This document shows, one piece after another, positions 18,783-21,700 of a DNA stretch of 64,000 bases. A program made the translations under genes and the position numbers. The stretch covers positions 6,010 to 70,009 of the forward strand of contig CAZGOI010000001.1 of the NCBI GenBank assembly GCA_964527185.1, given 5' to 3'. Position 1 is the stretch's first letter; each line of letters opens with the position of its first letter. This DNA comes from an uncultured Candidatus Saccharibacteria bacterium. GTDB taxonomy: Bacteria; Patescibacteriota; Minisyncoccia; Phycocordibacterales; UBA9973. The notes beneath the pieces were generated by a model that did no database searches, was not told where the DNA came from, and saw only the letters and a list, made by a program, of their open reading frames with translations.

Positions 18783-21700
18783 TAATAGGAATCGAACGAT
18801 TAGTACACCTCGGCTCTACACATTACTGTGCTTACACCTAGTGCCTATCAACCTAATCATCTCTTAGGTTTCTCAAACGATTCCTTATCTTGAAGGTGGC
18901 TTCCCTCTTAGATGCTTTCAGAGGTTATCCATTCCCGACATAGCTACTGGGCATTCCGGCTGGCGCCAGAGCCCATAGACCAGAGGTCAGTTCACTTCGG
19001 TCCTCTCGTACTAGAAGCAAATCTTCTCAAGAATCAACGAGTGCAGTAGATAGGAGACCAACCTGTCTCACGCATCTATGTTTTACTTCCCAAAAATTTT
19101 CGTTAAGAAATTTTGAGAACCTCTGTTACCAGAGGGATCGGACTGTAATATATTCTCTTACGAGAATGTTCACGTTCAGTCTCTACGGGTGAGTTTGCAA
19201 AACTCATATTGAGTTCGCGAAATACTCTTCCCTCGGTATCGCCCTTCACTTCGTTCAGGACCTTTGGCCCTTCGCAAATTGATTCGGATTCCACCGATAT
19301 CAGCCCCGACGATCTTGTCGGGGTCCCGACCCTTTCAGGTGTCGGGATGAACTTCTCAATAAATATTTCTATTTATTGCCGCCGTGAATGCACCACGGTG
19401 CATACGGTCTTCCCGCCTTTATTAATTGGCGGGTAAAAAATCTCAGATTAAAACATTTATTTTAAATAAACCTCGTGGGATTCAAACTGCACTTCAGCCG
19501 AGATAAATCTCTGCTAGAGTACGGTTTGAACCCAGCTCGCGTACCTTTTTAATTAGCGAACAGCTAAACCCTTCCCAGCTTCTCCACCAGGAGGATAAGG
19601 TGAGCCGACATCGAGGTGCCGAACTCCGCCGTCGATATGAACTCTTAGGCGGAACTAGCCTGTTATCCCTAGAGTAGCTTTTATCCGTTAATCTTCCATC
19701 ACATCTAATGTGAATGGTCGGTTCACTATGTTCTACTTTCGTATCTGCTCGACATGTCCGTCTTGCAGTTAAGCCAGCTTGTGCCATTACACTATCGGCA
19801 CGGTTTCCATTCGCGCCTAGCTGACCTTAATAAACTCCTCCGTTACTCTTTAGGAGGATACCGCCCCAGTAAAACTACCCACCAGATACTGTTCCTCTTA
19901 ATTTTTACCCAAGAGGTTAGAACATACAAGCACAAAAATTGGTATTTCACTGACGAGTAGATAACATCCGAAAACGTTACCATCAAACCTCTCCCAACTA
20001 TGCTACGTATTGTAATCATATGCTCAATATCAAGCTGCAGTAAAGCTTCTAGGGTCTTTTCGTCTATCTGCACTTAACCGGCATCTTCACCGGTATTGTA
20101 TTTTCACCGAGCAGGTCTTCGAGACAGTTCTCCAGTCATTACGCCATTCGTGCGCGTCGGAACTTACCCGACAAGGTACTTCGCTACCTTAGGACCGTTA
20201 TAGTTACGGCCGACATTCACGAGGGCTTACAACAGCCAGCTTGATATAATCGCACCACCGTTGGTTGACCTTCTCGCATTGGTCAGGCGTCACCCCCTAT
20301 ACATCCACTTGCGTGTTCGCAGGGAGCTGTGTTTTTGATAAACAGTTGCCAGAGAAACTTTCGCTGCGCCCTTCACCCTTGCGGGTTCAGGGAAGCCTTA
20401 TTCCAAAGTTACGGCTGATTTTTTGCCGAGTTCCTTGAAGACCTCTCACTCGTTCGCCTTGGTCTGCTCGACCTGATCACCTGTGTCGGTTTACGGTACG
20501 GGTTCTATTATATTGATCTTAGATGCTTTTCTTGGGAGCGTGCTTTATGAAATCTACCCTGACGAATCAGAATATTTATACGTAGCTTGGATGCCCACTT
20601 GCGTGGCTCTTCCGGATTTTCCTAGAAGACACCCTCACTATATAAACTCAAATCCAATAATGAGCTTCATATACTACACTCCGTCCCATCTTCGAATACA
20701 ACAGAAGTGCTGGAATATTAACCAGCTGTCCATCGAGTCCGGCTTTCGCCATCCCCTTAGGACCGACTAACCCTGGGATGATCACCATTGCCCAGGAAAC
20801 CTTGATCTTTCGGCGGGGGAGGCTCTCACTCCCCTTGCGGTTACTTGTGCCAACATTCTTACTTCGACACGCTCCACGCTGGGTCACCCCTTGCGCTTCG
20901 CCGCGGTGTCGAATACTCTCTTACCACTCTTCATACCCGAAGGTATTCAGAGTCCTCAATTTCGGTACTACGTTTAGCCCCGATTATTTTCGGTGCGAAA
21001 TCTCTTGATGAGTGAGCTGTTACGCTTTCTTTAAATGATGGCTGCTTCTAAGCCAACATCCTCATTGTCAGAGAAATATCACCTCCTTGATTTGCACTTA
21101 ACGTAAATTTTGGGACCTTAATTAGAGATCTGGACTGTTTTCCTTTTGGCTAATGGAGCTTCGCCCCCATAGCCTAACTGCTAAGCTTTAACTCTTGGTA
21201 TTCGGAGTTTGATAGGTGCAGCGACCTTTCGGCCTGTCCGAACCTTCCAGTGCTCTACCCCCAAGAGGAACACTTAACGCTAGCCCTAAAGCTATTTCAG
21301 AGAGAACCAGCTATTACCAAGTTCGATTAGCTTTTCACTCCTTACCACAGGTCATCCGATAGTATTGCACGGCTAACCGGTTCGGACCTCCCGACATCTT
21401 TCGACATCGTTCATCCTGCCCGTGGCAAGCTCACCTGGCTTCGGGTCTTATCTAGACTACATAATAATTTCGCGCTATTAACACTCGGTTTCCCTAAGGC
21501 TCCACTGTTTCAGCAGCTTAGCCTGCAGCATAGATAAACTCGTTGGCTCATTCTTCAATAGGCACGCCATGATGGTTCCATCTTGCGATGTCACCACTCT
21601 GACTCCTTGTAAGTATATGGTTTCAGGTCTATTTCACTCCCCTTATCGGGGTTCTTTTCACCTTTCCCTCACGGTACTAGTTCACTATCGATCTAAAATA

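Follow-up and report, generated by a model that had tools for sequence, protein, structure and literature searches.

It is well established that group I introns abound in the 23S ribosomal RNA (rRNA) genes of the Patescibacteria, or Candidate Phyla Radiation (CPR). Brown and colleagues are said to have been the first, in 2015, to note introns at position 2593 of the CPR 23S gene, and the Chlamydomonas chloroplast Cr.LSU / I-CreI intron occupies the same site (L2593), with a homologous core. Insertions are carried by 82% of CPR 23S genes (Tsurumaki et al., 2024; PMC11270868), position 2593, termed '23IS12', being a recurrent group I / LAGLIDADG_1 site; 222 group I introns lacking an open reading frame (ORF) have been counted over all CPR 23S sites, and Rfam recognizes as group I only 45% of CPR 23S insertions (PMC11270868). 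Cyanobacterial introns at L2593, found in Synechococcus C1 and C9 and in Thermosynechococcus elongatus, measure about 740 nucleotides (nt), carry a LAGLIDADG gene, and display the paired regions P7.1/P7.2 together with a short P2 (Haugen et al., 2007; PMC1995217). Here, we examine an insertion in the 23S gene of an uncultured Candidatus Saccharibacteria bacterium (assembly GCA_964527185.1, contig CAZGOI010000001.1), lying within a 64,000-nt stretch of DNA (positions 6,010 to 70,009 of the contig) that was analyzed as a whole and is referred to below as the window. We consider it very probable that positions 19073..19520 of the minus strand are a group I intron inserted after U2593 of a Patescibacteria 23S gene and devoid of a homing-endonuclease gene, as such an ordinary addition to a well-populated set.

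The host gene is recognized by Rfam along the entire bacterial large-subunit model and measures 3440 nt against the 2925 nt of that model. In the cmscan alignment, one large block is left unaligned, between ...GGGUUCAAACCGU and ACAGGUUGGUC..., and a MAFFT alignment with the rrl gene of E. coli (locus L001) places a single 448-nt insertion at that very block. The aligned rrl copy is 2903 nt long where the reference has 2904 nt, its T2592 being the standard U2593, and the numbering was verified by the landmark bases U2585 and A2602. By this alignment, the insertion follows the equivalent of E. coli U2593 (L2593), which is a classic group I intron site (the I-CreI / Cr.LSU site) and is located at the start of helix 93, in the strand entering that helix, beside the peptidyl-transferase center. 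The interrupted gene and its borders are as follows:

18781..22220, minus strand: host 23S rRNA gene, full length, with a single interruption (Rfam RF02541, LSU_rRNA_bacteria, 2291.6 bits, model positions 1-2925)
19521..19533, minus strand: last 13 nt of the 5' exon, GGGUUCAAACCGU, comprising CCGU (19521-19524) and GGGUUCAAA (19525-19533)
19073..19520, minus strand: group I intron, 448 nt (sequence reading, cmscan, MAFFT)
19073, minus strand: terminal guanosine (omega-G448) and 3' splice site (sequence reading)
19069..19072, minus strand: opening 4 nt of the 3' exon, CGUG, which pairs with guide nt 135-138 to form P10

The 5' exon ends with U at 19521, the intron begins ACUCUAG with its first A at 19520 and ends ...AUAGAUG with its last G at 19073, and the 3' exon opens with C at 19072. 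These borders are unambiguous because a shift of 1 nt in either direction would alter the universally conserved mature sequence CCGU/CGUGAG. The initial annotation of this DNA had described an insert splitting the 23S gene on the minus strand, preceded by U and terminated by G, and both the insert (by Rfam, cmscan, and MAFFT) and the terminal bases (U at 19521, G448 at 19073) prove to be real; the alignment to E. coli that it recommended has now been run and sets the insert after U2593. Of its coordinates, the end at 19073 was exact, while 19518 and a length of 446 bp give way to 19520 and 448 nt. It had also pointed to CPR genomes. The 23S exons share 87.6% identity with metagenome relatives and 82.5% with a Ca. 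Paceibacterota metagenome-assembled genome (MAG), sequence similarities which indicate that the host is indeed a Patescibacteria/CPR bacterium, and the remark that rRNA introns are a hallmark of such genomes accords with the 82% of CPR 23S genes that carry insertions (PMC11270868).

The insert belongs to a sizeable family. A scan of one genome per species for 23S genes with G instead of T before CGTGAGACAG, as expected of any G-ending insert, returned at least 120 loci, nearly all of them in Patescibacteria/Saccharibacteria MAGs, with some in Acidimicrobiaceae and others. Among the matches listed, 105 introns of 256-1034 nt were extracted, and 91 of the 105 share with the insert the ordered blocks CACGGCGG, UAUCGG, ACCGAGGGAA, CCCGUAGAGACU, and AYAGUCC; overall, core sequence blocks are common to more than 140 L2593 introns of other genomes and metagenomes. 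By nhmmer, the insert is linked to about 45 genome introns among the matches listed (best L076, at 1e-16) and to all 43 introns extracted from a metagenome scan with the conserved 3' tail and exon (46 loci), the closest being the 376-nt intron of L135 at 4e-25. Searching metagenomes for an exact 35-nt P2 pattern yielded no loci. Two structural classes built on one core can be discerned at L2593: one with P7.1/P7.2 and a compact P1, resembling the cyanobacterial introns, and a larger one without P7.1/P7.2, whose long P1 loop pairs with upstream exon bases. Accordingly, the 91 relatives that were parsed among the matches listed comprise 60 without P7.1/P7.2, with guide and exon-pairing strands like those of the window intron, 26 with P7.1/P7.2 ('class B'), and 5 without a recognizable guide sequence. 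The window intron belongs to the larger 'class A'.

Within this framework, the whole catalytic core can be placed in the insert. Helix names were taken from the Rfam alignment of L013 and are inherited by the matching blocks of the insert, where all proposed helices are fully paired:

19379..19386, minus strand: internal guide sequence CACGGCGG, nt 135-142 (complementary to the exon junction at 8/8 positions)
19357..19378, minus strand: P2 hairpin, nt 143-164, 9 bp with a GAAA tetraloop (all 9 pairs covary)
19348..19352, minus strand: 5' strand of P3, GUUCA, nt 169-173 (6/6 P3 pairs covary)
19233..19302, minus strand: joining segment J3/4 (UGAUA), P4, A-rich J4/5 (GAA), P5, and J5/4 (CGA), nt 219-288
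19187..19232, minus strand: P6 (GGG/CCC), P6a (GAGU/ACUC), and P6b (ACUCA/UGAGU), nt 289-334
19168..19186, minus strand: J6/7 (GUA), 5' strand of P7, J7/3 (AAC), and 3' strand of P3 (GUGAAC), nt 335-353
19152..19167, minus strand: P8 hairpin AUUCUC-GUAA-GAGAAU, nt 354-369 (4/5 pairs covary)
19140..19151, minus strand: J8/7 (AUAUUA) and 3' strand of P7 (CAGUCC), nt 370-381 (the 'S' element)
19074..19139, minus strand: J7/9 with P9.0, P9, P9.1, and the conserved tail AAGUAAAACAUAGAU

Exon CCGU (19521-19524) pairs 4/4 with GCGG (nt 139-142) to form P1, with a U(-1).G139 wobble at the splice site, and CACG (nt 135-138) pairs 4/4 with CGUG of the 3' exon to form P10. This wobble is present in 53/53 class-A introns, and the full 8/8 complementarity of the guide recurs in nearly all relatives, always directly 5' of P2. 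Moreover, the last guide base tracks exon position -4, as ACCGU is accompanied by ..GCGG in 121/129 cases and AACGU by ..GCGU in 19/20. The P2 loop conforms to GNRA in 50 of 53 introns. P3 draws its sixth pair from C218 (window 19303), which lies beyond a 44-nt extra piece considered below, the partner strand being GUGAAC (nt 348-353); a P3 drawn by eye, UUCACG/CGUGAA (nt 133-138), was ruled out by the comparative data, which give GUUCA(C)/GUGAAC and assign CACGGCGG to the guide. P4 (UCGGUG/UACCGA) and P5 (UCC/GGG, extended distally by a segment containing GGGCC-AAA-GGUCC) are the same helices that the Rfam alignment assigns in L013, and the extension of P6 is common to the insert, L019, and L083. 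In P7, G338, a bulged A339, and GACUG344 face CAGUCC, with G340-C380 as the predicted guanosine-binding pair, and the R (GUAGAGACUGAAC) and S (AUAUUACAGUCC) elements are both textbook-like. Hairpins P7.1/P7.2 are absent from the window intron, in which only AAC separates P7 from the 3' strand of P3. Toward the 3' end, P9.0 joins AU 383-384 to AU 446-447 and is followed by P9 (CCUCUG-GUAA-CAGAGG, nt 386-401) and P9.1 (nt 406-430); P9.0 occurs as AU/AU in 84 introns and, with compensation, as UU/AA in 10, and the P9 loop is GUAA in 44/53.

Covariation across the family lends these helices independent weight. A MAFFT alignment (A1) of 26 real relatives, from which the window sequence was excluded, was used to build a covariance model (R1) of 177 positions and 43 base pairs. 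The sole match of R1 in the 64-kb window is 19119..19386 on the minus strand, covering the whole model (1-177) at 101.7 bits (E 6e-30), within the 94-167 bits scored by other L2593 introns. In A1, 94.6% of the cells of the structure are paired, a share that drops to 34-41% once partners are shifted by 1-3 columns; both sides change in 31/49 pairs, and none of 500 shuffles reaches any of five measures. Covarying pairs are found in P2 (9/9), P3 (6/6), P5 (3/4), P6a (4/4), P8 (4/5), and P9 (4/6), with P4, P6, and P7 almost invariant save for the last P7 pair, which switches between A-U and G-C at 14:12. A second count, taken at fixed offsets from the conserved blocks in 53 introns including that of the window, gives the same picture, and such fixed-offset extraction cannot be biased toward pairing.

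Between the 5' splice site and the guide lie 134 nt that constitute an expanded P1 loop, which is the first of two departures from a plain architecture:

19491..19520, minus strand: hairpin directly after the 5' splice site, nt 1-30 (minimum free energy, MFE, fold)
19478..19490, minus strand: intron nt 31-43, GCAGUUUGAAUCC, complementary to exon positions -13..-1
19387..19477, minus strand: remainder of the P1 loop, nt 44-134 (MFE fold)

The first hairpin pairs nt 1-3 with 28-30, 5-8 with 23-26, and 10-13 with 18-21, and in the remainder of the loop an AU hairpin (nt 51-65) is followed by a GC hairpin, CCCGCC/GGCGGG (nt 88-109), and by the hairpin CCGU-AUGCAC-CGUG-GUGCAU (nt 114-133), the last of which stacks under P1. 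The blocks UGUUUUAAUCUGAGAUU and AAGACCGU..UCACGGCGG of this loop are found again in L076, L135, and L130. In between, exon GGGUUCAAA (19525-19533) pairs 9/9 with intron nt 35-43 in what we call helix a, and the pairing of exon -13..-5 with the P1 loop is maintained at 96.9% across the family. At exon position -6, 53 introns present 31 G-C, 18 A-U, and 3 G-U pairs and 1 mismatch; in another example of this covariation, a host with UUUAGAC has GUCUAAA. The entire 13-bp helix between the exon and nt 31-43 was weighed as the real P1 and rejected, with mismatches frequent at -3: it is not the catalytic P1 because A stands opposite the splice-site U in 42/53 introns. The guide CACGGCGG is preferred because it offers U.G in all introns, accounts for P10, and immediately precedes P2, as is standard. 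The exon/P1-loop helix could stack on the short P1 or else be its competitor; mechanistically, the pairing of nt 35-43 with exon -13..-5 may keep the 5' exon in place, or may rival P1 as long as the core is still unfolded. A match noticed by eye between (C/A)UGUUUU of the P1 loop and GAGACAG of the 3' exon is confined to a subfamily and involves an invariant exon, and no claim is made for it.

The second departure is the extra piece in P3:

19304..19347, minus strand: 44-nt extra piece at the P3/J3-4 junction, nt 174-217 (65.9% GC)

It consists of two perfect 7-bp hairpins set back to back, UCCCGAC..GUCGGGA and CCCCGAC..GUCGGGG, and sits between the fifth and sixth bases of the 5' strand of P3, stretching the distance from guide to P4 to 79 nt versus a fixed ~35 nt in other class-A introns. 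The alignment of R1 to the window intron is disturbed exactly here. An insert at the P3/J3-4 position was found in none of the ~95 comparable relatives among the matches listed, the few other cases of a long guide-to-P4 distance being insertions inside P2 or anchoring errors. In the 64-kb window, a search for further copies of the double hairpin recovered that of the intron alone. In 1.25 Mb of fetched loci, twin hairpins of the form YYCCGAC..GUCGGRR give 5 strict matches, the window's included, versus 0 in reversed controls; for single hairpins that share the stem word, the counts are 37 versus 2. Twin hairpins lie in the P1-loop regions of the L2593 introns of L131 and L081 (1235-1271), outside rRNA genes at L081 7685-7721 and L113 3443-3482, 17 nt past the 23S 3' end at L138 400-437, and also at L067 ~905-945. 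The recurrence of the twins, at 5 against 0 in controls, is suggestive of a small repeated element. In single hairpins, the same word was also seen to act as P2 in the L011 intron and as P7.1 in the L047 intron. It is tempting, if rather doubtful, to regard the 44-nt pair as a copy of a small double-hairpin element spreading within Patescibacteria genomes and, as a separate and equally tentative matter, to regard the exon/P1-loop helix as a switch by which splicing would be put off until core folding is complete.

The absence of an endonuclease gene deserves equal scrutiny. The longest ORFs within the insert encode 75 aa (plus strand) and 63 aa (minus strand), and a 97-aa ORF overlaps only the first 27 nt of the intron. 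By tblastn against the endonucleases of relatives, no endonuclease remnant was found in the intron; the sole match below E=0.01 (E 4e-4) was set aside as an N-terminal extension of the L080 ORF reading through the conserved RNA core. The initial annotation was correct that no ORF of 80 aa or more, and with it no homing endonuclease, resides in the insert, and the obvious stems that it remarked upon are borne out by an MFE of -168.9 kcal/mol (z = -9.8 vs shuffles). Its description of the insert as GC-rich does not hold, as the GC content is 42.9% in the intron, 46.2% in the 23S exons, and 41.0% in the window as a whole, and only some of the intron stems are rich in GC. Among the matches listed, an ORF of at least 90 aa is present in 36 of 106 genome-derived L2593 introns (that of the window included), with an ...AGFLDGDGS... 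motif in about 26 of those 36; roughly a quarter of relatives carry I-CreI-like LAGLIDADG genes and about two thirds have no ORF of at least 90 aa. The ORF-less condition is therefore the usual state of the family, and the I-CreI-type endonuclease is optional in the L2593 lineage because members without it are the majority. Three ORF products from relatives were tested and all fall into Pfam LAGLIDADG_1. For one of these endonucleases, the closest solved structures are I-CreI, I-MsoI, and I-CvuI, with full-length matches (E ~1e-20 for native I-CreI). The natural I-CreI target is TCAAAACGTCGTGAGACAGTTTGG (PMC1904291), and the exon junction of the window gene, taken in its intron-less form, is that target with a few substitutions. 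The intron is a relic of an I-CreI-type homing element and, since it lacks an endonuclease, is presumably no longer mobile and vertically inherited.

If the group I assignment is correct, the precursor would fold so that a free guanosine, bound in P7 at G340-C380, attacks the bond after exon U(-1); G448 would then occupy the guanosine site while P10 aligns the 3' exon, and the 5' exon would attack after G448, joining ...ACCGU to CGUGAG... and restoring helix 93. The 44-nt double hairpin would presumably be tolerated as a protruding peripheral element. Removal of the intron would be needed for ribosome function, given that the site is in the catalytic core of the 23S rRNA. Several observations nonetheless weigh against this interpretation. 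The general group I model of Rfam, RF00028 (Intron_gpI), does not match the insert at its gathering score, nor even at E<=10 when 601 nt are searched. P1, P10, P4, and most of P7 are near-invariant in CPR introns, and their support consists of complementarity plus a single covarying position each. P1 amounts to 4 bp, and both of its strands have other potential partners, nt 31-34 for the exon bases and an internal CCGU (nt 114-117) for guide bases 136-139, so that inactive folds are possible. Finally, self-splicing may be impaired because a core P3 strand is interrupted as in no relative.

With respect to RF00028, we judge its silence to be a false negative that reflects the limited sensitivity of a general model, because relatives share the core blocks, two of them (L018, 63.6 bits; L013, 51.4 bits) pass Rfam, R1 matches, and the helices covary. 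Indeed, 6 of 8 clear L2593 relatives tested do not reach the RF00028 gathering score, and in the window intron the extra pieces in the P3 strand, P5, and P6 are the likely cause of the miss. Permissive Rfam matches on the insert (CRISPR-DR43, MIR6140, GA-cis, sR39) are at chance level, all with E>3, that to MIR6140 on the opposite strand arising from the long exon/P1-loop hairpin. The initial annotation had suggested the RF00028 search and had named the lack of a covariance-model match to group I introns as the outcome that would speak against its view. The general model taken literally gives exactly that outcome, while the family model R1 matches. Its wording of a 'probable group I intron' finds support in the L2593 site, the RNA elements placed, their covariation, the relatives that pass RF00028, and R1.

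The more serious rival is that the insert derives from a group I intron that has lost autocatalysis, such that its removal is inefficient or requires a host or trans-acting protein, with either the P3-strand double hairpin or the alternative pairings of exon and guide as the cause. The P3/J3-4 insert is unique among ~95 comparable introns and disturbs the alignment of the family model, no maturase or endonuclease ORF is present in the intron, and the alternative pairings sequester exon CCGU and guide ACGG. Every conserved core position of the family is, however, intact in the window intron, the two hairpins are perfect, self-contained, and able to protrude, and most relatives are ORF-less too. 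As the 23S gene is usually single-copy in CPR genomes (PMC11270868), a splicing defect at the peptidyl-transferase center would be strongly selected against, and we regard the loss of autocatalysis as improbable. Considerably less probable still is that the insert is never spliced, being either kept in mature 23S rRNA as an expansion or excised without ligation in the manner of RNase III, with fragmentation of the 23S rRNA. This fate is not without precedent: a 23S group I intron of Simkania is reported to be unspliced (Everett et al., 1999, cited in PMC11270868), and short non-intron insertions, probably intervening sequences, occur in CPR 23S genes (PMC11270868). The window site is, however, in a strand of helix 93 and not at a helix tip such as those of helices 9, 25, or 45, and the ends of the insert form no long terminal stem of the kind RNase III needs. 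The U.G wobble, P10, P9.0, and omega-G are conserved and track the exon, which would be pointless without splicing, and CPR rRNA insertions are reported to be missing from transcripts (PMC11270868).

Another kind of intron altogether, whether group II or archaeal bulge-helix-bulge, has a negligible chance of being correct, and a search for support of either in the insert found none. Group II-like CPR insertions are confined to 16S genes (PMC11270868). Rfam gives no group II match to the insert at gathering score or at E<=10, where the group I family model matches at full length, and the ends are ACUCU...GAUG, unlike GUGYG...AY; on the strength of these ends and model matches, group II and other types are excluded. 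The group I intron after U2593 is the reading that we retain.

The surroundings of the intron add several observations. The 23S gene is followed by one further rRNA gene:

18545..18651: 5S rRNA, after the 23S gene (Rfam scan)

No 16S rRNA gene adjoins this 23S-5S pair within the 64-kb window. In domain I of the 23S rRNA, at about E. coli positions 269-289, two small insertions (+37 and +51 nt vs E. coli; window ~21850..21960, minus strand) fold as a long extra hairpin of ~57 nt, which is an expansion segment or short intervening sequence and no intron. In many relatives, 23S sites other than L2593 are occupied by further group I introns (L146 6284-6466, L145 1536-1821, L128, L131, L141, and others), which are cross-detected by R1 at lower scores; the window 23S gene has one intron only. 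Transfer RNA (tRNA) genes were encountered as well. A complete tRNA-Leu(UAG) gene (1882-1960, minus strand; ARAGORN) is nested within the P6 extension of the 1034-nt L2593 intron of L008 (a Saccharibacteria MAG) and shares the strand of the 23S rRNA. In the Ca. Paceibacterota MAG of L013, a tRNA-Pro(UGG) at 818-894 (plus strand; Rfam 59.6 bits, ARAGORN) falls inside another 23S insertion, which suggests a tRNA embedded in an rRNA gene insertion. In the window itself, ARAGORN reports a tRNA-Ser(GGA) gene at 11546..11635 (minus strand) that is absent from the Rfam gathering-threshold scan.

The value of this locus lies chiefly in annotation. Bona fide rRNA introns of Patescibacteria escape the general Rfam group I model, and part of the 'uncharacterized' CPR 23S insertions are therefore probably ordinary group I introns, whereas a site-specific covariance model such as R1 recovers L2593 introns cleanly, and exact borders allow the mature 23S rRNA to be reconstructed correctly. 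Only the double hairpin within P3 and the long P1 loop that pairs with the exon are unusual, and these traits are minor unless the hairpin pair is mobile. Were that so, the ribozyme core would be shown to tolerate invasion by a double hairpin at the P3/J3-4 junction.

Comparison with known systems places the intron firmly, if not without peculiarities. The intervening sequences of 23S rRNA that are processed by RNase III lie at helix tips, have a long terminal stem, and are excised without ligation; they resemble the window insert in being extra 23S-gene sequence absent from the functional rRNA, and differ from it in that its site is in a helix 93 strand and it has no terminal stem. In the Tetrahymena pre-rRNA, Woodson and Cech reportedly described, in 1991, an alternative hairpin, P(-1), that competes with P1. 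As in the window intron, upstream exon bases there enter a helix that overlaps the exon strand of P1, but the partner strand of P(-1) is in the exon, while here it lies within the P1 loop, covaries with the exon, and could also stack on P1. Against RF00028, the elements P3, P4, P5, P6, P8, P9, R, and S correspond one to one by way of L013, yet, unlike L018 and L013, the window intron goes without a match at any threshold tried. The features of the cyanobacterial introns match those of the class B relatives. The window intron shares with them the site and a homologous core, and is distinguished by the lack of both an ORF and P7.1/P7.2, by a P2 of 9 bp with a GNRA cap, and by a P1 loop of 134 nt; the endonucleases of its ORF-bearing relatives are, for their part, closest to I-CreI, I-MsoI, and I-CvuI. 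Its nearest counterparts are the CPR L2593 introns, which were classified by means of the Rfam model that the window copy escapes (Tsurumaki et al., 2024; PMC11270868). Apart from the 44-nt double hairpin, which is shared by none of the ~95 comparable relatives among the matches listed, it is like them in host group, gene, site, core blocks, and the common lack of an ORF.

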